DNA from: an uncultured Acidobacteriaceae bacterium
GTDB lineage: Bacteria; Acidobacteriota; Terriglobia; Terriglobales; Acidobacteriaceae
Length of the DNA stretch: 64,000 nt
NCBI GenBank assembly: GCA_963833305.1
Contig: CAWHXN010000008.1
Span: forward strand, 171,572-235,571
Direction of reading: 5' to 3'
Positions 32,347-64,000 of the stretch are shown here, piece by piece. The translations under genes were made by a program, and so were the position numbers. Below the pieces are notes generated by a model. It was not told where the DNA came from, did not search any database, and saw nothing but the letters and a program-made list of their open reading frames with translations. The number at the start of each line of letters is the position of its first letter. Positions within the stretch are counted from its first letter, which is position 1.

Positions 32347-33765
32347 TGCCGAAAGAAATGTCTGATGCCTTTGTATTCTTTGGCGCCACCGGCGACCTAG
32401 CCTACAAACAGATTTTCCCATCGCTGCAAGACTTGATTCGCGACGAGGGATTCAACGTTCCTATCATCGGCGTTGCCAAAGCCGGCTGGACCCTGGACCA
32501 GCTTAAAGAGCGCGCCAAAGAGAGCCTGGAAGAGCACGGCGGTCTGGAGCAGGCTCCTTTTGAGAAGCTCGTCAGTTTGCTGCGCTATGTCGACGGCGAC
32601 TACGACGATGCGGCAACTTTCACCGAACTGCGCAAGCAACTGGGCGAGGCTCAAGCGTCCGCTGCATTATCTGGCCGTGCCTCCCAGCCTGTTCGGCACG
32701 GTGGCCGAAGGCCTTGCAAAATCCGGTTGCGCCACCAACGCACGGGTCGTCGTCGAGAAGCCTTTCGGTCACAATCTGCCCAGCGCCGAAGAGCTCAATC
32801 GCATTCTGCATAAGTTCTTTCCCGAAGAGAACATCTATCGCATCGATCACTATCTCGGCAAAGAGCCGGTGCAGAACATTCTGTACACTCGCTTCGCCAA
32901 TCCCGTCTTCGAGCCCATCTGGAATCGTCGAATACGTGCGCTGCATTCAGATCACGATGGCGGAAAACTTCGGTGTGAGCGACCGCGGCAAGTTTTACGA
33001 CGAGACCGGCGCGCTGCGCGACGTGGTGCAGAACCATATGCTGCAGGTACTGGGCAATCTCACCATGGATCCGCCCACCGGCGAGGATCACGAGGCCGAG
33101 CGCGATCAGAAGGCGGCGCTGCTCAAAGCGGTGCGCCCGCTCAAAGCCGGACGACGTGGTGCGCGGACAGTACAACGGTTACAAGAAGGTCGCGGGCGTC
33201 GCGCCCGGTTCCACCGTCGAAACCTTTATCGCGATCAAGCTGTTCATCGATACCTGGCGCTGGGCTGGCGTTCCGATTTACATTCGTGCCGGAAAGATGA
33301 TGCCGGTCACCTGCATGGAGGCGGTCGTCGAATTCAAGCGTCCGCCGCGGGAAACTTTCCACGAAATCGTGCCCGTCGCGCTCATCGCACATGCGGATGC
33401 GCGTCAGCCCCGACATCAGCATCTGGCTTCGGCGTTCGCGTCAAGGTTCCAGGCGAGCGCATGGTTGGCGAGGATGTCGAGCTGAAGTTGAAGAGCCATG
33501 CCGCCGCCGAGATGCCACCGTACCAGCGACTGTTGGGCGACGCCATGCGCGGCAACGGCGAGCTTTTCGCCCGTCAGGATCTGGTGGAAGCGCAGTGGCG
33601 CATCGTGCAGCCGATTCTCGGCAATGTCACGCCCGTTTACAGCTACGAGCCGGGCACTTGGGGCCCCGACGAAGCGAATCAACTCATCGGCGCGGATGGG
33701 CCGTGGATCAATCCCACCGTGCCGACTCGAAGAAGAGGACAAATCGATCGCAGCGCAGAGACTGA
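32346..33765 (+). CDS. zwf: glucose-6-phosphate 1-dehydrogenase, frame-disrupted as given
   Basis: '[19 protein letters not shown]', '[14 protein letters not shown]', 'ITMAENFGV', 'DVVQNHMLQ', 'VRGQYNGY' and '[14 protein letters not shown]' are spread over at least three frames. Shifts lie near 32640, 32930, 33150 and 33390. The 3' end is uncertain, near the TGATG at 33763-33767. Confidence 0.85.
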
Positions 33766-34426
33766 TGTTGGTGTTTTCTGTTCGACGTCGACAACACGCT
33801 GCTCGACAACGATCGTCTGCAAAACGATTTGTTTCAGCATCTGGAGCGCGAGTTCGGCGCCAAAGCCCGCGAGCCGCTACCTGGCAATCTTCGAGGAGCT
33901 GCGCGGCAGTTGGGTTACGCCGATTATCTGGGCGCGCTGGAGCGCTACCGGATCGAGAACATTGCACGATCCTCGTCTGCTGCGCATGGCGAATTGGCTG
34001 GTCGATTACCCGTTCGCCGCGCGGCTCTATCCGGGCGCGCTCGATGTCGTCAAACGGGTGAAGCGCTGGGGCAAGGTGGCCATCCTGTCCGACGGCGACG
34101 CTGTGTTTCAGCCGCGCAAGGTGGAACGCTCCGGACTGTGGAAGGCTTTTGGCGGACACGTGCTGATCTACATTCACAAAGAGCAGGAGCTGGCCGGCGT
34201 GGAAAAGTTTTATCCTGCTCAGCATTACGTCATGGTCGACGACAAGCTGCGCATCCTGCAGGCGATCAAAGATGTCTGGAAGGATCGCGTCACCACTGTA
34301 TTTCCGCGGCAGGGTCACTACGCCAAAGACAAGAAGGCCATTGCGCAGTATCGCCCGGCTGACATCAGCATCGAGCGCATCGCCGATTTGCTCGAACATA
34401 AACGAAATGAATTCATGGCCGCATAA
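33765..34426 (+). CDS. HAD-superfamily hydrolase, frame-disrupted as given
   Basis: ATG 33765, then 'VFLFDVDNTLLDN' (DxDxT) only if one T is removed from the T4 run 33774-33777. Later segments 'RYLAIFEELR', 'LGYADYLGALERYR' and 'WLVDYPFAARLYPGALDVV...ILSDGD...VMVDDK' alternate between two frames. Confidence 0.65.
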
Positions 34427-41731: not shown

Positions 41732-42487
41732 CTAAGTCACACGTTGTGGGATATCTAGTGGGATCGGTTCAGCCGTTGGCGGATCGGCCACCACGGTGTA
41801 AATCAAGCTTTCTTCTCGTCGCCACCATCCCCGAAAAACTTTGCCATTGTCGCAAACCGCCTGGAGCCGCGACCATCGGCTTTGATCGATTTCGAGCGGG
41901 TCCGCCGCGGATTCGCCAGCTTTCGCCCGTTCGCCCGCAGAATCAGAAAGGCTGACTGCCACGCTTCGGGTGTCGGCCCGAAGACCAACCCGCAGCGCCT
42001 TCAAAGCGCTTTCCTTTGCGCTCCACAGCAGGGTTAACAGCCAGGGTCGATCCTTTTGCGGCATTCGCAAAACCATTGCCTGCTCTTCCGCGGTGAAGTA
42101 ATCGTTAAAGAAGCCGCTGCTGCGTGGCTCGATCAATTCCAGGTCGCAACCCACTGCGGCAAGAGACGGCATAACGGCGCAGATTGCCGTCCCCGCGCAG
42201 TGGCTTAGTGAAATCGTAATGGCTGCCGCTTGCCCGGCAAGAAATACTTCCGGCGCTCCGTCCGAGGCTGGACGAATCTCGACATCAGCAAGCGCGGATG
42301 GATCAGCCGAAAGATTCATTTGGGCGGCCACAGCCCGTTTCGCTGTCCAGCGTCCCAAGCGCCAGTCACCACGCCGCTTGGGAAATCGCAAGCCGCCCAA
42401 TTGCAACACCTCAGCCGGGCTAAGCCAGTTGTTCTCCGCCGGCATATCCACAGCGGTCTGTTCCAGCCAAAAAAGGTTCACTGCCAA
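41732..42487 (-). CDS. 4'-phosphopantetheinyl transferase (Sfp-type)
   Basis: 251 aa. 'ISLSHCAGTAICAV' and 'WSAKESALKAL' (W/FxxKE(S/A)xxK) are PPTase superfamily motifs. The start (TTG/GTG) lies 4-10 nt after the carboxylase stop. Confidence 0.8.
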   Translation of the reverse strand: MAVNLFWLEQTAVDMPAENNWLSPAEVLQLGGLRFPKRRGDWRLGRWTAKRAVAAQMNLSADPSALADVEIRPASDGAPEVFLAGQAAAITISLSHCAGTAICAVMPSLAAVGCDLELIEPRSSGFFNDYFTAEEQAMVLRMPQKDRPWLLTLLWSAKESALKALRVGLRADTRSVAVSLSDSAGERAKAGESAADPLEIDQSRWSRLQAVCDNGKVFRGWWRREESLIYTVVADPPTAEPIPLDIPQRVT

Positions 42488-48157: not shown

Positions 48158-51100
48158 TTATGCCAGGACAGCCCGCATCGCTCGCAGCGGCTCGACGTCG
48201 ATACGATTGGGCAAAGCCACGGTGCGATAGCCGCTAACCTGCAGGTAGCGGTTTCCGGCGTTATCCACAACCTCCGCGTCGAAACTTTCCTGCCCTTCGT
48301 CCGGCGTGACGATGGCATAGAGAGGTCCCTCGGCCAATTGCGGTGAGCGCAACCAGCTGACCTGCTCGACATGAAGCGGCAAGCCCATCCGGTTGTGTAC
48401 CCCCATTTCCCAGAGACCGGCTGTTTGGAAGCAAAGCTCGATCAGCCGCGGCGCCATCAGGGTTGGCAGTTCAGAAGGCTGATGATTGCCGGGTAAGTTC
48501 TTTGTCAACTCACCCACCATCCTCTTTCCATCCCACCAGGCGCGCTCTACCACCTGGTACGCCGGGCCGTGAAAGTAAATGCGATAGATCTCGGCTGCGT
48601 CAATGATGGACTCCGCAGACAAACGCAGCGGCGTCAGGGGTGAGACCTCCGTCGCCCGCTTCGTCAGGCGCACGCGTGCCACGAAGTGCGTCGTCTCTTG
48701 CGGCTCAGGATGGTTCGGCAGGGTTCGCCGTCCGATCAAGCGGCAATCTGCGATCAGATCATCCCCTTGCGGATAAAAGGCAGCTTGAATCGTTATCGTC
48801 CGCGGCTCGTCTTTGTAGAACTTGAAGGGAGCCAGGAAGTTCACCTCGGCGATTGCTCCTACACGCCAGCCTGGATGCACGCAGAGTGCCGCCTCAGCAA
48901 ACGCCTCAATTCCCATTACACCCGGTAGCACCGGAGTTCCATCGATGCGATGGTCGTAGAGGAATGGCTGTGCCGTCGGATCCAGCGTCGTCTCCATGGT
49001 CAAGCCGCTGTTAATGCCCATTCCGGTGATCTTACCGACCATCGGACCTTGCGCCGCCACCCGCTCGCGTGACGCGTTCAGGGCGTCGGTGTCCAGCCCG
49101 CCGGTGGGATCCCATTCGTTCAACAGAATGCCGAGGCGATTGCCGATCACGATTTCACCGCAGGTTGCTCCCTCGGTGAGCTCGCGACGGATCAAAGGAA
49201 TACCAGCTTCAGGCGGCAGCATGTCGATCCCTGCCGCTTCCATCATCTTGGGAATCGAGCCGCGCGTGGCCATGCCGATGCCGCCCCACGCCGTCCAGTC
49301 AATGACAATGCCGCGTGTGGCCGGACGGGTGGTACGGAAGCTCGAGGTGATCTTGCACAGCAGGTCGTTGGCGGCGCTGTAATCGGTTTGACCGCCGTTA
49401 CCAAAACGACCAGCAATGGAACTGAACGCCACCGTCGCCCTCAGAGGCATGTTTCCTATGGCGTGCAGAAGGTTGAACCAGCCATCACTCTTGACGTCGA
49501 ACACCAGATCGAATTCCCGCGGATCTTTGTCAGGCAGGAAGTGGCTCCGCTCGATGCCTGCAGCGTGCAGCAACACATCGATGCGGCCGCTGCGCTGGCG
49601 CACCTGATCGATGACCTTAGTTATGGCGTCTCCGTCGGCAAGGTTGACACTGAAGTAGTGGGCCGTCCCGCCCGCCGCTCGCACGGCATCAATTGCACTC
49701 TGCGCCGCCTGCGCCCGCTCCAGTCCGGCCAGTTCCTTTTCCACCAGCGCCGGCGTGGCTCGTTCACCGCGCGCCTGTATGCGGGCAAACAGGTCGCGCT
49801 TCAGCCCGTCTTTGTCGCTGACGAATCGCTTTAGATCGGGGTTGTTCGGATCGGGCTCGGGCACCAGGTCGAGCAGGTAGAACGTGCCTCCCGAAGCCGT
49901 TGCCAAATCTGCCGTGATGGCCGACACGATGCTTCCCGCCGCACCCGTTACCACAAACACGCTATCTTCATTCAGGGTGATTCCCGCGTGACCATCGGCT
50001 GCAGGCTGTTCTTGCAGGCTGATCGTCCAACGCTCGCCAGCTCTGTATCCAATCTCAAGTGCACCGGGATCGCGCAGCGTCTCCTCGACTAAAGCTTCTG
50101 CGACTTCCGACGGCGAACGCCCAGCTTCAAAATCGACGGCTTTGACGAAAGCGTCGGTCCGCTCGCGCTTGTAAGTCTTTGTGAAGCCGACGACTCCTCC
50201 GCCCAGCGGAGCGTTGGCGCCAGTTGCATTGTATCCATGCTGACCGCCAAGCCGGGTGGCCGACACCAGGAATGTACCCGGTGCAGCAATCTGCTCGAAC
50301 AGAACCCGCATAGTGGTATAGAACAACTTCACGCGTGTACGTAACGCTTCGCGCCAGCTTGCCAGATTCATGTTGTCCAGGCTGCCTTCGTCGTCCAATC
50401 CAGGCAGCCAGTAGACACCTTGCACCGAGCCGGCAGCGAGCCAGGTGTTCAGGCGAGCGGTCAGAGTGTCCGCATCCGGCGCGCCCTCGATCAGCAACGC
50501 TTCCACACCCAACTTGCGCAGCTGTTCTGTCAAAGCAACGGCTGCGCCATTCTTGTCCGGCATGATAACCACTCGACTGCCAGCCTGCAGCTTTACGCCC
50601 GTTGGCTTGCAGATGTTGAGCGGGGGCCGCAAGTTTGGCACCGGCACGCGACGGGGAATGCGGTTGGTCGCGTCGAAGTTAAGCACCGGCTTGCGCTCCC
50701 GCTTTGGCGCCGATGGAGGCGAAGGCGGCGGGGTGGTCGGGTCGGTGCCTTGCGGCGGTTCAGGCGGGATTGGCGTGACTGCAGCTTTCGCCCGTTTCTG
50801 TTGGGCAAATTGAATCACGTGGCCCAGGGTCGGAAAATCCCGTAACTTGATACTTTCATCGCGCGGGATGTTATAAGCCGCCCGCACCGAAGCGAACATT
50901 TCTGCCTGCTTGACGGTATCGATGCCAAGATCGGCCTCCAGATCCAGGTCCAGATCCAGCATGTCTTTGGGATAGCCAGTCTTCTCCGCAACGATGTCCA
51001 TCACCTTCTGCTTGACGGTCTCATCGTCGTCGGCAGGAACCGCGCCTGGCGAAGCCACGACGGGAGTCGACGCTGAGGCAGGCACAGGCGAAGTTGTGGA

Positions 51101-54100
51101 AGGCTGACCGGCAGTTGTGGGCGCCACAGTTTCAGGCGCCGCAGATGCGGCCGCAAGGTCCGGCCGATTCTCGTACACGAAACGGATCACGTGCGCCAGC
51201 GTCGGATAGTCGCGCAGTTTGCGGTTTTCATCACGCGGGATACCGTAGATCTCGCGAATCGCCGCGAACAGTTCCGCCTGTTTGACCGTATCGACGCCGA
51301 GGTCGGCCTCGAGATCGAGATCCAGGTCGAGCATGTCTTGCGGATAACCGGTCTTCTCCACCACCAAGGCGAGCAGCCGTTCCTTGACGTCATAGACCAT
51401 AGTGGCAACAGAGTTCGCCACCGCTGACGCGGTTGCCGGCTGCGTCTCCGGTATAGGTGTGGCAGGCGCGGTCGTAGCCGGAGCAATAGCTCCCCCAGCC
51501 AGGTCAGGCCGATTCTCGTACACGAACCGGATCACGTGCGCCAAGGTTGGATAGTCGCGCAGTTTGCGGTTTTCATCACGCGGGATGCCGTAGATCTCGC
51601 GAATCGCCGCGAACAGTTCCGCCTGTTTTACGGTATCGACACCGAGGTCGGCCTCGAGATCGAGATCCAGATCCAGCATGTCTTGCGGATAGCCAGTCTT
51701 CTCCACCACTAAGGCGAGCAGCCGCTCCTTGACGTCATCAACCGACGCCCTGGCGGCGATAGCCACCGGAGCCGGTGCGGGAGGTTTTACTTCGGGCGTT
51801 GATGCGGATGCTGCGCTTGCGGCCGTTGAAGGCGTAGCCGCGGGTGACAGATCCGGCCGATTTTCGTGCACGAATCTGATCACGTGCGCCAAGGTCGGAT
51901 AGTCGCGCAGTTTGCGATTTTCATCGCGCGGGATGCCGTAGATCTCGCGAATCGCGGCGAACAGTTCTGCCTGCTTGACCGTGTCAACCCCAAGATCGGC
52001 TTCCAGATCGAGATCCAGATCCAGCATGTCTTGCGGATACCCGGTCTTCTCCACCACCAAGGCGAGCAGGCGCTCCTTGACGTCATCAACCGCAGCCTTG
52101 GCGGCGGTCGCGACGGGAGCTGGCGTGGACGGTTTTGCTTCGGGCGATGATGCGGATGCTGCGCTTGCGGCCGTTGAAGGCGTAGTCGCAGCTGACAGGT
52201 CGGGCCGATTCTCGTACACGAACCGGATCACGTGCGCCAAGGTTGGATAATCGCGCAGTTTGCGGTTCTCATCGCGCGGGATGCCGTAGATCTCACGAAT
52301 GGCCGCAAACAATTCCGCCTGCTTGACCGTGTCAACACCAAGATCGGCTTCCAGATCGAGATCAAGATCCAGCATGTCTTCCGGATAACCAGTCTTCTCC
52401 ACCACTAAGCCGAGCAGCCGCTCCTTGACGTCATCAACCGCAGCCTTGGCGGCGATAGCCACCGGAGCCGGTGCGGGAGGTTTTACTTCGGGCGTTGATG
52501 CGGGTGCTGCGCTTGCTTCAGTTGAAGACTTAGCTGTGGGCGACAGATCCGGCCGATTCTCGTACACGAATCGGATCACGTGCGCCAAGGTCGGATAGTC
52601 GCGCAGTTTGCGGTTTTCGTCGCGCGGGATGCCGTAGATCTCGCGAATCGCCGCAAACAATTCCGCCTGCTTGACCGTATCGACGCCAAGGTCTGCCTCC
52701 AGATCGAGCTCCAGATCCAGCATGTCCTGCGGATAGCCGGTCTTCTCGACGACGAGGGCGAGTAGCCGTTCCTTTACGGAATCCGACGCTTCGCTTGCTT
52801 GTTTCGTGGTCAACGGTCTTGGCTGGGGCGCGAGCGTGGCTGCTGTGATCTCACCCTTTCCGTTTGACTTGCCTTCTTTGACTGGCGTCACCGGTACCGG
52901 CATCGTCACCGCGACCGGCACGGCCGCTGCCGCTTGGGACTTCGTTGTGGGGGCAGTCGTAACAGCAACCGGCCCGGCCGACGCCACTTGGGGCTTCGGA
53001 GTCGGAGCAGGCAGCGCCACTGCAACTTGCGTTGGCGCTGGCGCCTTCGGAGTTGCCGTTGCCGGTTCGCCGCGACTCCGCCTTGGTCGCAGCAATCTGC
53101 GCTGCCAATCCCTGATCGCGCACCCGCAGCGTGCGATGAACCACTTCGAGCTCGGCAGCCGGACGTCCGGCCATCCGGCTTAGCCAGGCTTCCCAGGCAG
53201 ACTGATCGGCGATGCGGTAGGCGTAGCCCAGATTCTTCGGGCTGGGACGCAGACCAGTCTTCGTCGGCACCCAGCGCAACAGAATCATGCTGATCTGCGA
53301 ACCGAAGCCGGCGCCCAGATGCAAAGCATATTGGATGGGATAAGGAACCGCCCTTCGACAGGTTCAGCACGCCCAACTCCGGATCGACTTCCTTGAAGTT
53401 GGCAACCGGCGGCACCAATCCCGTTTCCAGGGTTTTCACCGCCAGAACATCTTCGATGCCTGTGGCCATGGCGTGACCAGTCATGCCTTTGGTATTGGCT
53501 ATTACGATTTGGTCGGCGCCGTCGCCGAAGACGCGGCGCAGCGCGTGAATCTCGGCCGAAGCGCTGCCGCCTCTTGCGGGTGTGTAAGTTTCGTGGGAAA
53601 CGAAAACCATCTTCGGCGCTATCTCATTACGGGCAACGCCGCTGCGGGTTTCCGCTCCAGCCACCAAGTCTTCCATCACCCCGCCGATATGCTGCACATC
53701 GAGGCGAGTGCCGTGAAACGCACTGTTGGCGGTCACCGCGCTCAATACTTCGCAGATAGGCTGGATGCCCCGTTCGCGCGCGGCTTCGGCGCTCTCGACT
53801 ACCAGCGCCGCTGCGCCCATGCCCATGATCAGGCCATGCCGGCGGCGATCGAAAGGAATAGCAGCTTCTTCAACCCGCTCGTCGGTCGCGGCCGCTCCGC
53901 TGGCCAGGAAGCCGGCGCCAAACCATCCGATCATGTTGTCGGAGGTGACGTCGTCCGCTGTGATGATGATGACGCGGCGGCACCGCCCCGCCCGGATCCA
54001 GTCCTGGGCCAGCCCAACCGCATGTGCGCCGCTGGCGCATGCCGCATTGATCTGCGTGTTGGGACCGCGAGCGCCGATCAACTCGGCGAACTGCGAATGT

Positions 54101-57100
54101 CCCATCGACAGCACCCGCAGCAGGAAGCGCCGGTCAAAGACGTATGGCTCCTTGTCGAGCGTGCTGCGCAACTCGTCGATGCGCCGATCTACTTCCTCCC
54201 CCAGCACGGAATGCCCGTTGGCGGCGCGGCCCCGCCAGCCTTCCAACATTGTCAGCTCTTCGCGTCGGGCATGGTCGACGTGATATGCCGAAATGAGTTC
54301 CGCAAAGGAGTCGTAGCCGGGAAAGGCAGAGCCGAAAATTACGCCCGTGTCGTCACGCATAGCATCCGGCAATCCCCAGCGATCCGGCAACTGCGTGCCT
54401 TTGCTGGTGGTTTTGTACCGCATGACCAGCGGAATGCCGGCGTCACGCAGAGCGTCGATTCCGGCGGCGATAGCCAGACGGGTCACCCGGTCGAGGGCCG
54501 CCAGATGTTCCGAGGGAACTCCGAATTCACTTTCCAGATCGAAGGCGCCGCCGCGGCCGGCCAGCTTAATGACATCGGCGACATCGTTAATCGACTCGAA
54601 CGTGGCCTCTCCCTGTTCGCTCTTGACCAGGCGCCGAATGTGCTTTTCCACCATGGCATTGCGGAACTGCTTAGGGATGGCGCTGATAAATTGATCACCG
54701 CGCAAGATGCGCTCAATGTTGCCATCGTCGAAAATATGCTCGGTTCCCGGTAGGCCTAACGACGCTCCGGTGATGACCACCGGGGCGTAGCCGGCGACCG
54801 GGCTATCGTCGCGATGAAGCTGCCAGCCCTTGCGCTCCAGAGTCTCGGCCAGCAACCGACCAAGCTCGTTGTACGAATTACCATTCGCGGGCTCAGGCGG
54901 CGCCGTTACAGCAGTGGGAGCTGCTGCGGCCAGCGGAGTTGCTTTGGCATAGTTTACAGCTGCCGAAATTGTCGCCTGTGCAATCGCAGGTTTCGCCGGA
55001 ATCTCGCGTGAGACTTCAGCCTGCCCACGGCCCAGACCTGCCGCGTACAGCGCGCATAGGGCTTGATTGAAGGACGGAATATCTCCGACCTTGGGATGGT
55101 TGGTGAACAGCGAAATCACGTCGCCTCGTTCGCCCAGCACTTCCTCGGCAAATCCCTGCAACGCCTTCTTCGGCCCGACTTCGATGAAGACACGAGCTCC
55201 GGCGTTGTACAAGGTGTTCAGGCCTTTCACAAACTGCACCGGCGAGGCTACTTGCAAAGCCAGCAGATCCAGGATCTGCGGAACCACGTCAGGTCCGGTG
55301 GGATAAAACTCGCCATTCACGTTGGCGACGATTGGAATCTTCGGGGATTGAATATCCAGGGTAGCCAGCATCTCGCGCAGTGGTTGGCTGGCGGGAGCCA
55401 CAATCGAGGTGTGGAAAGCGTGGCTCACCGGCAACGGAACGACGTTGAAGCCGGCTTGCAGGAACATCTCCATCGCCTGCTCAACGGCTTTGCTGGCGCC
55501 TCCAATGACCGACTGTTGCCCGCTGTTTACGTTGGCGATCACCGCATACCCGTCAACGGTCTTCAGGATTTGCTCGACTTCCGCCAAGGGCGCAAATACC
55601 GCGGCCATGCGGCCGGTATCCTCCACCGCAACCTTGGTCATGCCGCGGCCACGGGCGCTAACGGCGGCTAACGCATCGTCGAAGGTCAGCGACCCTGATG
55701 CCACCAGGGCGCCGTATTCGCCCAGGCTATGTCCCATGGTCATGTCTGGCTTTACCCCATACGCTGCCAAAAGCTGGGTGAGCGCCAAGTCAATCGTCAA
55801 CACGGTCGGTTGCGTGATCTCGGTCTGGCGCAGATCTTCTTCAGCTTTTGCCACCGCTTCTTCGTCGGTTTGATCCACGAAGATGAACTCCGTCAGTGGC
55901 TTGCCCAGCATCGGAGTCATGATGCGATCCGCTTCCGTAAAAATGTCGGCCACGATCGGTTCGGCGGCGCGCAGCGGCGCGATCATATTCACGTACTGTG
56001 AGCCTTGCCCGGTATACAGAAACGCGACTTTGGGAGCCGGGCCGCGTCCGCGAAAAATTCCCTGCGGACGCAGTGCTTTCCAGATCGGTGCCTGATTGGC
56101 TTTCAGCGCCTTCAATGCCTTGGTTGCTTTGTCAGCCAGCTCGGCCGCATCGGCATAGTCGATTGCCAGGCGTTCAGGCGCTTTCAGGTCGGCCTCGGCT
56201 GGGGCAGCCGGTGCAGGAGCACGACCCGCTAGTGCTTCTTTCTGGATCGCAACCAGACGCTCGATAATGGCAGCGTCGGAGTCGGCGCCGATTACCAGCG
56301 CGCCCCGCAACGGTGCTTTGCACGATTGTGCAGATGCCGGAGCAGATGCCGCCTCAGCACTTGCCACTAAGCTCGGGATTACTGCCGCCGGTACCTCACC
56401 CACGGCTACCGAATGCTTGCCGTTTCCGTTCAGCCTGCCGGGAATGTACTCCTCAAGAACAGCGTGGAAGTTCGTACCTCCGAATCCAAATGCGCTCACC
56501 GCGGCTCGCCGCGGGACATCAGCAGGAACAGTCCATTCCTTCAGTTTGGTGTTGACATACAGCGGGGAGTGAGCAAAGTCGATGTCGGGACTGGGATGCT
56601 CGCAATGCAGGCTCGGAGGCAATACCTTGTCGCGAAGGGCCAACGCAACTTTCAGCATTCCGGCGGCGCCGGCCGCGCCCTTCAGGTGACCAAAATTCGA
56701 TTTGACGGAGCCCAAAGCAATCGAGCCTTGGGGAAGATGAAAACTGCTCAACACGTCAACCAGGCTTTGCGCCTCTACCACGTCGCCGACGCGAGTCGAG
56801 GTGCCGTGGCCTTCAAACATAGTCGCAGTCGCCGGCGATATGCCGGCATTGTCCCAGGCTCGCTGGATGCAAAACCGCTGGCCAGTGGGATTGGGCGCGG
56901 TGATGCCCTTACCCTTGCCGTCACTCGATCCGCCCATGCCGCGCAGCACGGCATAAATTTTGTCGCTGTCGCGCTCCGCATCGGCCAGGCGCTTCAACAG
57001 AAAGATGGCCGCGCCTTCGCCCATCACAAAGCCGTCAGCGCCCTCAGCATAAGGGCGAGTACCGGTGGCCGAGAGGGCGCCAATCTTGCAGAACTTTATG

Positions 57101-57858
57101 AAGCTTGAGGCTCCCATGTTGCGGTCAATGCCGCCTACAACGGCCACGTCAAAATCGTTCTCGATCAGTCCTTCCGAAGCCGCACTGAAAGCCGCCATCG
57201 CCGAAGCACAAGCCGCGTCTACCACGTAGTTGGGACCGTGAAAGTTGTAAATATTCGCGATGCGACCGGCGATGCAGTTGGCCAGTTCGCCCGGCATGGT
57301 GTCTTCCGTAACTGCGGGGACCAGCAGCCCGATGCGTTGATGCAATTCTTCCGTTATTTTGCGACGTGTGTTCTCGGGCAACGCTGCGAAGCTGGCGCCT
57401 TCCGCCAGTTCGTGGGCGTACTCCGGGAAGTACAGGCGCAATGCGGTGAAGTAGTGTTTTTCGCCGGCCATGGCATTGCCCAGAATCACCGCCGTGCGGT
57501 CCGTATTTAGCGGCTTATTCGGATAGCCGTAATCTTCCAGGGCCTCGCGGGTGCAGGCGATCGCCCACTTCTGGGCATCATCCATGGCGTCGACTACGCG
57601 CGGTGGAACAGCGATGTGCCACTTCATCGGCTCCCACGGGAATTCGCGCACCCAACCACCGATCGTCGAGTACGTCTTGTCGGGAGCGCTGTGATCGGGA
57701 TCGTAATAAAACGCAGAGTTCCAGCGGTCGGTTGGAACTTCGCTGACACTGTAACGGCTGTTCTTAATGTTTTCCCAGAAAGCCGGTACGTTCGGAGCGT
57801 CGGGCAGGACAGCGCCCACCCCCACAATCGCAATCGCGCGATGAGCAGAATCTTCCAT
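48158..57858 (-). CDS. pfa-like iterative type I fatty-acid/polyketide megasynthase: KS - AT - KS' - 6 x carrier domain - KR - PS-type DH (two frame breaks as given)
   Basis: Track ORFs 52906..57867 and 48158..53095, plus a 280-nt bridge in the third frame ('[24 protein letters not shown]...') read as one protein of about 3,230 aa. Domain map (nt): KS 56452-57837 (DAACAS, HGTST, SNFGH); AT 55153-56034 (GHSLGE, HAFH); KS' about 53250-54786 (NAACASG, SHETYT, GMTGHAM); carriers 50783-52783; KR 49136-50578 (VVTGAAGSIV, YSAAN); DH 48161-49042 (LYDHRIDGTPVLPG). The likely start is ATG 57858, with AAGGAAG 8 nt upstream. Confidence 0.85.
50783..52783 (-). repeat. six tandem carrier-protein (ACP-like) coding repeats, period about 345 bp
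   Basis: Units at about 52544-52783, 52196-52435, 51848-52087, 51500-51739, 51155-51394 and 50783-51022. Each is '[78 protein letters not shown]' (unit 6 is diverged), separated by Ala/Pro/Ser/Thr linkers. Confidence 0.95.
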
Positions 57859-58383
57859 GGCTGACACTTCCTTTTGCGGATGTTTCGAACCTAGACGAAT
57901 AGGCGGCTATCGGACGCAATGGGCAGCAGCATCGAGGTGGGGTCTTATCCCTTCCTCTCCACACCGGAGGAAGGCGGCACTCACCAGGCCTGTTAATTCG
58001 GGGGTCGCCCGAGAGCATCTCTATCCTGACAGGGGCGCGGCGGACTTGTCTGTGACATGATGTCCTGCAGTTTGTGACGTATGTTGCTCGGGTTGGTGAT
58101 ATCGGGCGCAATCGAAGCCGGGTTTATGTGTGTCAACATATAAATCAAGCTGCTCACTGCAACTCTTTCGGCGGGGCCAATCAGGGAAATCGTGTTGCCA
58201 CACGTTATTATTAAATCAATATTGCATTCCGCAATGAGAGAATGCGGTAACGCGCGTTGTCACACATAAGTTACGGCGATGTTAAATCGAACGTTGCCGG
58301 GGAGTCAGGCCATTGCTTTTGCCAACCGGCGAAAAAGGCATTCGGTCCGTGAGGAAGCGGATCGAATGCCTTCTCTCGATCGA

Positions 58384-60085: not shown

Positions 60086-61069
60086 TTAGACCGAAACGCC
60101 TTTGGCTTCGCGGATCTTGTTGGTCAGCTCCGGCAAAAATTCCAGAATGTCGGCGACAATTCCAATGTCTGCCACCTGAAAAATTGGAGCTTTTGGATTC
60201 TTGTTGATGGCGACGATGAAGGGATTGCCTTTAAGGCCGGCCAGATGTTGGAACGATCCACTCATGCCGCAAGCCATATAGATCTTCGGCTTGACGGTCT
60301 GTCCCGAGGAGCCCACCTGACGGGATTTCGGCAACCACTTGGCGTCGACCACTGGCCGCGAACAGCTCACCGCCGCACCCATGATTTCAGCCAGCTCTTC
60401 GGCGATGGGTATGTTGTCCTTTTCCTGGATGCCTCGTCCCACGGAAACCAGCACTGCCTGTTTGGTGATGTCGACATCGCCGGTCTCGGCAACCACGGTT
60501 TCCAGATAACGGCGTTTCGCGGACAGCGCCCCAACCTCGGCGGACTTGTCGACCACGGCCCCGCTAAGAGGAGGGCCTTCCAGCGGCTTGAAAGAGCCGG
60601 GACGGGTTGTAAGCACCGCGCCCGAGGAGAGATCGCAGCGCACGTGAGCGCTAACCTGTCCGCCGAATTCCTGGCGAACCAGCTTCAGCGAAGTACCATC
60701 CACTCCGTCGATGGCAACGACGTCAGAAACAAAAGCCGAATTGAGCTTGATCGAAAGACCCGGCGCCAAATCGATTCCGAAGTGAGAGTGGGGAACCAGC
60801 ACGATGCTGTCGCGCGGGATGACTTTGACCAGGGCTTGGCGAACCAATTCAGCATTGGGATAGGCGATCGCCTGATTGGCGACTTTCCATACCTCGGCGT
60901 ACGAAGAACGGAGGCTTTCGCAGACCGTGTCGAGTTCGGGACCCCATCCGGCTACGACGGCAATCGGGGAGGCAGCAGCGTCGATCTTTCTTGCGGCAGC
61001 TGCCAGTTCGGCGGCCGAGTCGTCGGCCACGCCGGCCTTGTGCACAATGTAGGCAAAGATGCGAGCCAT
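60086..61069 (-). CDS. etfA: electron transfer flavoprotein alpha subunit
   Basis: 327 aa. C-terminal FAD-binding '[30 protein letters not shown]...[23 protein letters not shown]'. Confidence 0.9.
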
Positions 61070-61866
61070 TAGTTCATCCCTCCTTTGGCCTTCATCAATT
61101 CGATTAGCTTGTCGATGATTTCTTCCTGGCTGCCCTGCAGCATTTCGGCACCCTTGCCCAGCGCAGGTAGGAAGTAATCGGTGCGCTTGACCTTGGCTCC
61201 GGCTGCCCCAACAGAGGCTGTGTCAACTCCCAGGTCGGAGGCCCCAAAGGTAGGAATTTCCACGGATGCTACCTGCCGGATACCGCGCATGCCGACATAA
61301 CGCGGTTCGTTAATACCGGTCTGAATCGACAGCACACAAGGCAGATCGATCTCGTTCATCTCCCGATTGCCGCCTTCGATTTCGCGGCTGATTTTCAGCT
61401 TGCCGCCATCGAGCACGGAGATGGAATTCACCAGCGACGCAAAGGGATAATCGAGCAGCGCCGCCAGCATGCCGCCCACCTGGGCGCCACCATCTTCGGC
61501 CTGGATGCCAGTCAAGATCAGGTCGAAATGATTCTTCTGCACGAAAGCTTTCAGGATTGTCGCGATGCCGCGTCCGTCCGATCCGGTGAAGCCGTCATCG
61601 GATATCAGGACGCCCTGGTTTGCACCCATCGCCATTTCCCGCCGCAAAACTTCTTCATCCTCGTCGGTGCCAACGGTCACGACGGTGACATTTCCCCCGG
61701 CATTGGCGGCGATCTGGATGGCCTCTTCGACGGCATAGTTGTCCGGCTCGTTCACCGAATAAACCAGGTCGTCACGTTCAATATCGTTTCCGGCACTGTT
61801 GAGTTGAATCTCGTTCTCCGAAGTGTCGGGTACTCTTCTGACGCAAACTAGAATTTCCACATTCAT
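61069..61866 (-). CDS. etfB: electron transfer flavoprotein beta subunit
   Basis: 265 aa. 'ILVCVRRVPDTSE' and 'DLILTGIQAEDGGAQVGGMLA'. The stop overlaps the etfA start. Confidence 0.9.
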   Translation of the reverse strand: MNVEILVCVRRVPDTSENEIQLNSAGNDIERDDLVYSVNEPDNYAVEEAIQIAANAGGNVTVVTVGTDEDEEVLRREMAMGANQGVLISDDGFTGSDGRGIATILKAFVQKNHFDLILTGIQAEDGGAQVGGMLAALLDYPFASLVNSISVLDGGKLKISREIEGGNREMNEIDLPCVLSIQTGINEPRYVGMRGIRQVASVEIPTFGASDLGVDTASVGAAGAKVKRTDYFLPALGKGAEMLQGSQEEIIDKLIELMKAKGGMN

Positions 61867-61924: not shown

Positions 61925-64000
61925 TCAAGCTGTTACGGATTCCGCTAGCTGCTCGACTCTTTCTTTTCCATTAGCCGGTTCACGTGCTACGTGCTGGTCG
62001 ACCAACTCCGTCAAGTCGATGGCCGTCATCTTTCCTTCCATACCGGCGACCTTGATGGCGTCTTCCATATTCACCATGCAGAACGGGCAGGCAGTCACAA
62101 TCACGTTTGCCCCGGCTTCAGCGGCCATTTGAACCCGCTTGACGCCCATCCGCATGTCTTCTTTCGGTTCGTAGAACAGCATCAACCCGCCACCACCACA
62201 GCAGAAGGACCGGTCGCGGCAGCGGCTCATCTCAACCCGCTTCAGACCAGGAATCGCATCGATCACATCGCGCGGATCGTCGTAGACCAGGTTATGCCGG
62301 CCCAGGTAACAGGGGTCATGATAGGCATAAACGTTGTCCGCGTTCTCTACCCGATTGAGTTTCAGGTTGCCGGTCTTAATTTCCCGGGCCATCACCTGGC
62401 TGATGTGCTCGACCTGCGGCATATCTTTATAGTCATGTTTCAGCGCGTTAAAGGCATGGGGATCGGAGGTGACGATGCGCTTTACACCCGATGCCTTGAT
62501 GGCTTCGACATTGTTGTCGCGCAGAGCCATGAAGAGCGTTTCTTCGCCGAAGCGGCGAACGTCGTGACCGCTGTCTTTTTCGGCCGCGCCCAGAATCCCG
62601 AAGTTCGCACCGACCTGGTCGAGAATTCTTGCGGTCGCGCGTCCGATCGCCTGGATACGGTCGTCATAAGACGTGATGCTGTCGACGAAGTACAGCGTGT
62701 CTGCCGTGTTCTTACCATCCAGAATTTTGACGCTGCAGGTTGGCTGAAACTCTTTGTCCTTGGTCCAGTCGGCCTTCTTCTTCTCCATCTTGCCGTAAGG
62801 ATTGCCGCGGCTCTCCAGGGCCTTCAGCGCTTTCTGGATCGACTTCGGCACATTTCCGTCGTCGACCAAGCCGCGCCGCAGATCGACAATCTTGTCGATG
62901 TACTCGATCAGCAACGGGCACTCTTCCTCGCAAGCGCCGCAGGTGGTGCAGGACCAGACTTCATCTTCGGAATAAATGCCTTCCGGCAGAAACTAACGGC
63001 GTGCCGTTGCCCACTTTGCCGAACATCGGAAAATGCTGGAAGGTATAGTCCCTGGCCTTGATGGTGAGGAACCTTGGTGACAGAGGCCTGCCCACCGCAT
63101 TGGCCGGGCAATTGTCAGAGCATCGCCCGCAATCGGCGCAGGAATAGAAATCGAGCATGTGCTTCCAGGTAAAATCTTCCAGCGTTTTCACGCCGAAGGA
63201 TTTCACTTGGTCCAGATTCTCATCGCTGACGCCCCAGCGGACCGGCTTGACGGTTCCCTTGTCCAACTTTGCGAAGTACACGTTGAACAGCGACGTCTCC
63301 ACATGGAACTGAATTCCGAATGGCCGATAGCACAACAGGAAGTAAAACGTCAGCACATCGAGAATGTAGGCGCCGCGGTGCAGATTCCAGAGGGTAGATG
63401 GAGACGCCGAATTGAGAGCGTTCTTCAACATCCACGGCAGCGACAGAACGGACAAGAATTCGACCTGACCTTGCTGTGCGAGAAGAGCGGCCCGGCTGGC
63501 TTCAAACAGGCTTTCCGACAGCATCAAAACTGCGATCAGCGCCAGCAGGAAAATGGCGTCGACTTTGTGTCCTTTGCCATACTTGGCCGGGACTTCGTAG
63601 CGCGCAGGTTTGAAGACGATCCGACGAGTCGCCGCTGCCACCATGCACACGAAAACAATCGTCGAGCAATAGTCGGTGACGATCCCGTAAATACGACCTA
63701 TTTCTCCAGACGAAGCCGACGCGCCAAAACTCTCGGACATGCCGAGGATCAACAGAGAGAACGCACGCGTCGCCAGCAAGATGAAGCAGGTAAAGATGAG
63801 GATGTGTATCGTCCCCGCAACCCGGTAGCGCGGATGCTTCCACTGCCCAAACCAATATTTCGCAATCCTCTCCAACCGCGCCAGCGGCCGATCAAAGCGA
63901 ACATCTGGGTTGCCGCGCACCAGCGGGGTTAGCCGCTTCGCGACGATGTAGGAGAAACATCCGAGACCGACAAGGTTCAGGAACACGAACAGAGCTTGTC
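61925..64000 (-). CDS. membrane-bound Fe-S oxidoreductase (cytochrome-b-like TM domain + 2x[4Fe-4S] + 2 CCG domains; HdrD/DsrK-like, candidate Etf:quinone oxidoreductase), 5'-open at window edge, one frame break
   Basis: TM-rich N-part (62961..63986 ORF, open to 64000). 'CADCGRCSDNCP' and 'CTTCGACEEECP' ferredoxin motifs. 'DPCYLGR' and 'FCCGGGG' CCG-domain motifs. The two halves join if one nt is removed at about 62984 ('gccGgaaggc'). Confidence 0.8.

Follow-up and report, generated by a model that had tools for sequence, protein, structure and literature searches.

What does a second ketosynthase-like domain do in a synthase that already has one? The question is raised by a megasynthase gene on the minus strand of a 64,000-nucleotide stretch of DNA from an uncultured Acidobacteriaceae bacterium (GenBank assembly GCA_963833305.1, contig CAWHXN010000008.1, positions 171,572 to 235,571), the whole of which is called the window here. 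Translation of its open reading frames (ORFs) and Pfam placed a second thiolase-fold domain, termed KS', between the acyltransferase (AT) and six tandem acyl carrier proteins (ACPs). An earlier note on this DNA had drawn attention to the domain and offered two readings of it, a built-in analogue of a chain length factor (CLF) or a second condensing activity. The second proved the better of the two: the full Cys-His-Lys-His set is kept and, judging from its sequence, KS' is probably a genuine second ketoacyl synthase of the KAS I/II (FabF-like) kind, active in condensation within a self-contained iterative synthase.

In the window the gene is read as two overlapping ORFs. The first (57867..52906, minus strand, 1653 aa) encodes a ketosynthase (KS1) and the AT followed by extra ketoacyl-synthase stretches, and the second (53095..48158, minus strand, 1645 aa) six PP-binding domains, a ketoreductase (KR) and a polyketide synthase (PKS)-type dehydratase (DH). 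Orthologs of the megasynthase are single ORFs of 2902-3214 aa with 78-91% identity over KS'. KS1 has the motifs DAACASAM, HGTSTRVGD and KSNFGH. The whole-protein PF00109 and PF02801 matches take in the extra stretches, whose positions the match does not specify. TIGR02813, the PfaA model, covers residues 11-926, passes over KS' and picks up again in the ACP array, in agreement with the view of the earlier note that the domain is an addition to canonical PfaA. Pfam found no release domain, thioesterase included, in the synthase gene, and no enoyl reductase (ER) domain, while KR and DH are present.

KS' opens with APVVITGASLGLPG at residue 1028 (base 54786), followed by INAACASG from residue 1273 (base 54051), VSHETYTP from residue 1423 (base 53601) and TKGMTGHAMATG from residue 1459 (base 53493). 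All of these motifs lie where the note had placed them. A phmmer alignment to Thermus FabF (1j3n) matches INAACASG with the catalytic Cys, VSHETYTP with the first His, and TKGMTGHAMATG with both the Lys and the second His, so that the Cys-His-His-like set described in the note corresponds, with the Lys included, to the FabF catalytic residues. Comparison of KS' with solved structures gave 68 distinct sequences at E <= 1e-10, the best being FabF of T. thermophilus. The search against family models proposed in the note likewise gave FabF as the best match (TIGR03150, 3.7e-43), with 147.8 bits where the cut-off is 493.75, and over model positions 139-374 only. A match to ACP_syn_III (KAS III) was marginal (25.5 bits, 36 residues around the Cys).

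The fold was modelled with AlphaFold2, from an alignment of 41 sequences, on the intact ortholog of locus L004, which shares 94% identity with the window. The model has a predicted local distance difference test score (pLDDT) of 91 and a predicted template modelling score (pTM) of 0.92, and is low only at residues 400-405 (<50) and the last residues. Its top Foldseek match was FabF 4b7v_B (E 8.6e-29, template modelling (TM) score 0.86 normalised to target). Across the matches whole FabF chains were spanned, with target-normalised TM scores of 0.81-0.87, 19-24% identity and about 513 alignment columns set against FabF targets of about 410 residues. The top 22 were bacterial FabF, and all of the matches listed were of KAS II/FabF type, bacterial or mitochondrial, except the actinorhodin ketosynthase at rank 23.

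KS' thus resembles FabF/KAS II (4b7v, E. coli 1kas, 1j3n) in its whole fold, in the positions of Cys, His, Lys and His and in a GFG(G/S) loop, but it is only 20-24% identical and differs in having about 90 extra residues before the Cys, an extension of about 55 aa at the C-terminus, HE in place of HG after the first catalytic His, and a megasynthase setting. The extra length had been put at 150-200 aa by eye. It is smaller than that, as the Cys of KS' is domain residue 250 and that of FabF about residue 161, an excess of about 89-90 residues over three inserts, and of about 40 over KS1 of the same protein. The structural model, which the note had suggested as a way to see what the insertion forms, resolved all three, insert iii as a long helical hairpin. 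This hairpin is the charged stretch to which the note had pointed; it varies and part of the family does without it, P0098 and P0122 among them, and family matches are split there in many representatives. The C-terminal extension, modelled as a helix (527-538) and two strands, precedes an Ala/Pro linker.

The catalytic residues are highly conserved. C, H, E, K and H were invariant in alignments of 13 and of 41 KS' sequences. An alignment of 148 domains was then read at the columns of the Cys, the His, the residue next to it, the Lys, the second His and the Phe. KS' gave C-H-E-K-H in 70/70 rows, with the Phe of GFGS in 69/70. KS1 gave C-H-G-K-H-F in 68/70 relatives, as did both of the genome's own FabF-like genes, and the six middle KS domains found in some relatives were divided between C-H-A-K-H-F (three) and the CLF-like C-F-x-K-Y (three). 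In a FastTree phylogeny of 88 rows, made up of KS', KS1, middle KS and the genome's own FabF-like genes only, KS' formed one clade on a long stem (SH-like support 100), outside the other three groups. Its mean path length was 4.1-4.3 to the FabF-like genes and 4.95 to KS1.

These data bear directly on the CLF reading, according to which KS' would form a pseudo-heterodimer with KS1, as KS and CLF do in PfaC and in type II PKSs, and would set chain length and/or prime by malonyl-ACP decarboxylation with little or no condensation. This we consider unlikely, although several points speak for it. Most members have one KS1 and one KS' in cis, with a plain KS-AT-KS' order in 45 of the 71 full-length representatives, and the linker after the AT, as in known KS-AT didomain structures, would return KS' to the side of KS1. 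The actinorhodin KS/CLF entry 1tqy is among the fold matches, yet through KS chain A and only at rank 23. Type II CLFs, however, have lost the catalytic Cys. A passage of a recent paper describes a CLF as a KS-like domain without the Cys-His-His (CHH) triad (10.1101/2025.10.24.682833). The published domain annotation, as it appears in passages of Shulse and Allen 2011 (PMC3098273), is nevertheless KS-MAT-CLF. Against this, the Cys, His, Lys and His of KS' are all kept in the 70 rows, the AT stands between KS1 and KS', joined in P0127 and P0135 by an ACP, and six relatives with a KS-KS pair still keep KS'. Because the catalytic Cys of KS' is invariant and some relatives hold such a pair in addition to it, the suggestion of a chain-length-factor analogue is weakened.

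Less probable still is a special, non-elongating role for KS', be it starter selection, transacylation, hand-over of the chain to a lipid acceptor, or a terminal condensation, that is head-to-head, branching or a pyrone- or resorcinol-type release. Such a role would suit the unusual motif contexts (HE vs HG, and an ARGGS loop), the three inserts placed near the N-terminal half, the part that makes up the acyl pocket of FabF-type enzymes, and a gene with no thioesterase or other release domain. In contrast, the best matches throughout are elongating KAS II enzymes, KAS III is matched only at the margin, and the full decarboxylation set (His, His, Lys) is kept, in keeping with normal malonyl-ACP condensation. 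The OleA type falls within the KAS III/CHS branch, which also counts against head-to-head chemistry. An OleA-type head-to-head thiolase was rejected, since family models, sequence and fold all give KAS II as the best match, and nothing was found in support of the head-to-head or branching chemistry that the note had mentioned.

The two frame changes in the gene as given in the window could suggest an artefact or a dead gene, in which the insertion of KS' came from a misjoined frame or the gene is a pseudogene with two frameshifts. We regard this as very improbable. The insertion and all of the catalytic motifs are upstream of both breaks in one continuous frame, are conserved in orthologs and are well modelled, which rules out a misjoined frame as the origin of the insertion, a possibility that the note itself had raised. 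The single frame assumed for the domain thus holds for the insertion and the motifs; it does not hold for the core, which extends past the frame change at 53342. P0153, the closest full-length relative that the protein search gave, has 3116 aa and is 91% identical over KS'; with it as tblastn query, the gene is traced across three frames. Break 1 comes directly after LNLSKGG, where the window reads GGTTCCTTATCCC and the orthologs GG-(S/P)-YPIQYAL, and looks, from the letters, like a consensus made from two alleles.

Public contigs were compared with the window over 52600-53900. A contig of run X1 (5114 nt, with 22 other letters over 1276 bases) is one base shorter at 53342, and a contig of run X4 is one base shorter at 53346 and has A>C at 53347, giving the GGPYP allele of locus L004. 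At 53068, one base is missing from the contigs of runs X1 and X2. As these near-identical contigs of other runs are without the extra bases, the real gene is one intact ORF, of about 3235 aa, and, so far as the sequences can tell, both frame breaks are assembly errors and not pseudogenisation. The comparison has its caveats: contigs of run X9 cover neither break, the X1 contig is also without a base at 52773 that is kept in the covering contigs of X2, X4 and X9, and the source of the best-matching contig may be the sample of origin itself. Of 58 orthologous loci, 55 showed no stop in codons 1-570 of KS' (the exceptions being L031, L054 and L063, with a masked run in L063), and locus L019 drifts out of frame near the end of KS'. 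Elsewhere in the same assembly the glucose-6-phosphate dehydrogenase (G6PD) gene at 32473-34426 (plus strand) is split over overlapping ORFs in different frames, and a FabF-like ORF on contig 6 (about 253661-254494) is without its N-terminus. This damage and the two extra bases of the synthase together point to indel errors in the assembly.

KS' is far from rare. When 1.84 billion cluster representatives were scanned in full with HMMER, it matched 10,286 at E <= 1e-3 and 655 at E <= 1e-30. Each of the best 150 had E <= 4.1e-122, and most of these matches lay at positions ~1000-1500 in proteins 2800-3600 aa long. With at least 150 representatives matching at E <= 4e-122, the domain is far beyond chance. 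A word-index search of longer proteins listed 120, of 2902-3214 aa and 78-91% identity, with source names such as Candidatus Korobacteraceae and Terriglobales. Among species genomes at least 585 stretches encode a relative of KS', in Acidobacteriota, Myxococcota, Actinomycetota, Calditrichota and others, and its identity across phyla is 65-94%. Variants of the architecture were also found. Six representatives have the order KS-KS-AT-KS', and in P0127 and P0135, where an ACP separates AT and KS', the KS' domain looks, from its position in the sequence, like the head of a second module. An NMO (PfaD/FabK-type) ER is fused to the N-terminus in 16 of the 71 full-length representatives, and several have a phosphopantetheinyl transferase (PPTase) fused at the C-terminus. 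Because of the NMO fusions, the family appears to be normally served by an enoyl reductase. The family proteins that bear such variants are P0038, P0060, P0140, P0059, P0147, P0079, P0127, P0135, P0033 and P0057.

The note had treated the arrangement as novel, but passages of Shulse and Allen (2011, PLoS One 6:e20146, PMC3098273) already describe it as Type R, KS-MAT-CLF-ACP(3-6)-KR with a downstream PPTase, and it is present in hundreds of genomes. The hosts named there are Koribacter versatilis, Solibacter usitatus, Elusimicrobium minutum and Roseiflexus spp., the product is given as uncharacterised, and in Koribacter an acetyl-CoA carboxylase (ACC) gene lies between synthase and PPTase. The window shows the same plan, with one pfaA-like gene in which a second KS-like domain comes after the malonyl-type AT and is followed by six ACPs and a KR. 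The PPTase gene lies downstream and, as in Koribacter, is separated from the synthase by an ACC gene, and the host is acidobacterial. There are differences from the published description. The middle domain is labelled CLF in the paper, whereas Cys, His, Lys and His are kept in every member examined here, and the passages that list the domains give no C-terminal DH, which the window synthase has. The window synthase is therefore a Type R secondary lipid synthase, known, common and still an orphan, and KS' is the hallmark domain of these widespread enzymes. The note had allowed that the fusion might turn out common and characterised; common it is, but no later characterisation of Type R was found in a literature search that left subscription journals mostly outside its coverage.

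In relation to PfaA and PfaC of the pfaABCDE system, the window synthase has KS1-AT, tandem ACPs, KR and DH as in PfaA, with TIGR02813 scores of 595.9 and 665.3 bits for the two ORFs, and in both systems two condensing domains serve one ACP array. Neither score, however, reaches the PfaA cut-off of 1010.1 bits. In the window synthase the second KS follows the AT on the same chain, as opposed to lying in a separate PfaC with a Cys-less CLF, and there is neither a FabA-type DH/isomerase pair nor a PfaB. No other PfaA- or PfaC-like locus was present in the genome (92.7% complete), the only sign there of a PfaD-type ER was a marginal 27.4-bit NMO match, and none of 14 control genomes gave a PfaA above cut-off. 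Identity as a canonical PfaA or pfaABCDE system was rejected on the scores and the lack of a PfaC-like locus.

The carrier domains are unusual. Aligned to the PigH ACPs and an Aquifex ACP, all six have Thr at the position of the phosphopantetheine-bearing Ser, and ACP1-ACP5 contain no Ser at all. A hidden Markov model built from the six window ACPs retrieved 858 ACP domains in 239 family proteins, with Thr in 840, Ser in 11 and another residue or a gap in 7; 227 of the proteins have Thr-only ACPs and three Ser-only. ACPs in other positions and architectures of the family also carry Thr. Passages on the E. coli ACP variant S36T state that it 'cannot be post-translationally modified by 4'-PP' (PMC3340395), and a literature search with the same limited view of subscription journals found no paper on natural Thr-type carrier domains. 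The PPTase that travels with the gene may load Thr. The ACP array is a tandem repeat in the DNA, with a period of 348 nt, 4.7 copies and 85% matches (51159-52778). ACP1-5 are nearly identical as proteins, and the ACP copy number may be unreliable in assemblies.

Upstream of the synthase lies a gene for an acyl-CoA dehydrogenase (ACAD) of the MCAD/Bcd/CarC kind, whose best NCBIfam match is the acryloyl-CoA reductase AcrC (4.2e-67, below its cut-off) and whose relatives in the PDB include Bcd 5ol2_C (3e-54) and CarC 6fah_C (7.4e-44). As in the Bcd-EtfAB and CarCDE systems (5ol2, 6fah), it is of this family and sits beside genes for both subunits of an electron transfer flavoprotein (ETF); it differs from them in a C-terminal extension of about 180 aa, and the ETF genes are missing from the cluster in many phyla. 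When 80 related loci were searched with the window's own proteins, the ACAD was found upstream on the same strand in 67 of the 67 with at least 1.9 kb of DNA upstream of KS1, at 63-89% identity and in several phyla. Its distance from the synthase was 8-622 nt in 65 loci, with a 4-nt overlap in L076 and 3.4 kb in L010. ACC and/or PPTase followed downstream in all 64 loci with enough DNA (ACC in 52, PPTase in 33). Of the 64 loci that extend far enough upstream, 44 had ETF alpha and beta, on the same strand and at >55% identity in 39, and the ETF-bearing loci were essentially Terriglobia and Bryobacterales. The ACAD may be put forward as a candidate trans enoyl reductase of this branch.

Insert iii of KS' was considered as a docking site for a trans-acting ACAD and rejected, as loss of the hairpin does not track fusion of the NMO-type ER (with NMO, 11 have the hairpin and 5 do not; with no N-terminal extension, 39 and 6). 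The ETF genes next to the ACAD, together with those for a CCG-domain and a 4Fe-4S protein, travel as a block with the cluster mainly in Terriglobia and Bryobacterales, and some Solirubrobacterales loci have divergent ETF genes on the opposite strand. On whether ACAD and fused ER have complementary distributions, a metagenome scan with the ER-fused P0038 found five loci only, with no ER or ACAD upstream and instead genes for a PMT_2-like protein and cytochrome bd.

Taking KS' as an active ketosynthase, KS1-AT-KS'-ACP6-KR-DH would work as one self-contained iterative synthase. ACC would provide malonyl-CoA, the PPTase would activate the carriers, and the AT would load malonyl units on the tandem ACPs. 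KS1 and KS' would both carry out decarboxylative Claisen condensations, with KR and DH processing each round, and might divide the work by chain length or type of intermediate, by analogy with KS-A and KS-C/CLF in polyunsaturated fatty acid synthases and with FabB/FabF in type II fatty acid synthesis. The three inserts in the N-terminal half could reshape the acyl pocket or dimer face of KS', the adjacent ACAD could supply enoyl reduction, aided by ETF in this lineage, and the product would be a long-chain acyl lipid.

Several points weigh against this scheme. No biochemistry was found for any member of the family in the literature search already mentioned, within the same coverage. Two features, the SHETYTPARGGS loop (pLDDT <50 at 400-405) and the Glu that replaces Gly next to the first His, are unlike any characterised ketosynthase and could change the chemistry, and kept residues are no proof of condensation. 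The division of labour between KS1 and KS' is drawn from analogy, and the two may instead pair as a heterodimer in the manner of KS and CLF. The Thr at the ACP attachment site may put the usual loading of carriers in question. For the ACAD, an oxidative role is equally possible from its sequence, an ETF with an FeS/CCG module is typical of beta-oxidation, and a distant branch (L090-L093, about 46% identity) has no ACAD upstream.

A wider proposal can be made only tentatively: that the synthases bearing KS' are not a PfaA variant but a distinct, self-contained lipid machine, in which KS', Thr-ACPs and ACAD are co-adapted. Such a machine would combine two active ketosynthases on one chain with Thr-held phosphopantetheine loaded only by the PPTase of the cluster, which would insulate the pathway from the housekeeping AcpS. 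An ACAD-type flavoprotein, linked to ETF in Terriglobia, would replace the ER domain, and the product would be a bulk lipid of abundant soil bacteria.

What is new here is the 561-aa ACAD in each of the 67 loci and the Thr-type ACPs, the layout with KS' having been catalogued before; the text of PMC3098273 uses neither the term 'acyl-CoA dehydrogenase' nor the word 'threonine'. The window adds a member to Type R and corrects a label, in that the conserved residues make KS' most likely an active KS and not a CLF. Members of the family are very common across the dominant phyla of soil (Acidobacteriota, Actinomycetota, Myxococcota and others), and the family is highly conserved and an orphan. The ACAD partner and the Thr carriers offer testable handles, namely which enzyme reduces the enoyl intermediate and whether the PPTase loads threonine, and with an answer to either of these questions the orphan cluster could become a defined pathway. 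The features of the locus are collected in Table 1.

Table 1. Features of the megasynthase locus, with positions numbered from the first letter of the window.
Feature	Position	Strand	Remarks
Megasynthase gene, KS-AT-KS'-6xACP-KR-DH	48158..57867	-	about 3235 aa with two extra bases discounted; two overlapping ORFs in the window
KS1, canonical PKS/PfaA-type ketosynthase	56440..57840	-	PF00109, PF02801 and PF16197 over residues 10-476; TIGR02813 PfaA positions 8-897
Acyltransferase, malonyl type	55141..56022	-	PF00698, residues 616-909; TIGR00128 fabD 3.9e-60; GHSLGE and HAFH motifs in translation
KS' thiolase core, domain residues 1 to ~504	53273..54786	-	end coordinate approximate; one extra base at ~53342 inside
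KS' active-site Cys codon	54037..54039	-	protein residue 1277, domain residue 250; aligned with the FabF active-site Cys
KS' His1425 and Glu1426 (SHETYTP), Lys1460 and His1465 (NTKGMTGH)	53473..53595	-	aligned to FabF HGTSTP and TKSMIGH
KS' insert i, helix and beta-hairpin, domain residues ~38-70	54577..54675	-	boundaries by eye from model secondary structure
KS' insert ii, beta-hairpin, domain residues ~120-138	54373..54429	-	model secondary structure
KS' insert iii, long helical hairpin, domain residues ~158-212	54151..54315	-	model helices 158-187 and 194-212
KS' conserved C-terminal extension, ~55 aa (LGYAYRI..W..WL...LEVV.RTLRV.DQG)	53117..53272	-	in another frame than the core in the window
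Frame break 1, one extra base in GGTTCCTTATCCC	53342..53346	-	looks like a hybrid of GG-SYP and GG-PYP alleles
Frame break 2, one extra base in linker after ...AATKAESR	53068	-	base lacking in contigs of runs X1, X2
Six tandem ACPs	50786..52783	-	Pfam PP-binding, six stretches; each DLG(V/I)DTVKQAE
KR and PKS-type double-hotdog DH	48203..49717	-	Pfam and translation; KR at 1127-1271 of P0002, DH at 1361-1631 (motif HRIDGTPVLP)
Single-chain acetyl-CoA carboxylase, 1873 aa	42492..48113	-	BC-BCCP-ACC_central-CT, eukaryote-like layout; Pfam
Sfp-type phosphopantetheinyl transferase	41732..42487	-	pfaE analogue; PF01648, PF17837
Acyl-CoA dehydrogenase, 561 aa	58384..60069	-	C-terminal extension ~180 aa; upstream of the synthase; Pfam
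ETF alpha	60086-61069	-	Pfam
ETF beta	61069-61866	-	Pfam
CCG-domain protein	61925-62914	-	Pfam
4Fe-4S protein	62961-63986	-	Pfam

Rfam gave no matches in 41000-64000. The gap of 516 nt between the ACAD and the synthase (57868-58383) contains one promoter-like site, no excess over the 0.6 expected from shuffles, and three weak terminator-like sites of 3 G-C pairs each, against 0.9 expected from shuffles.

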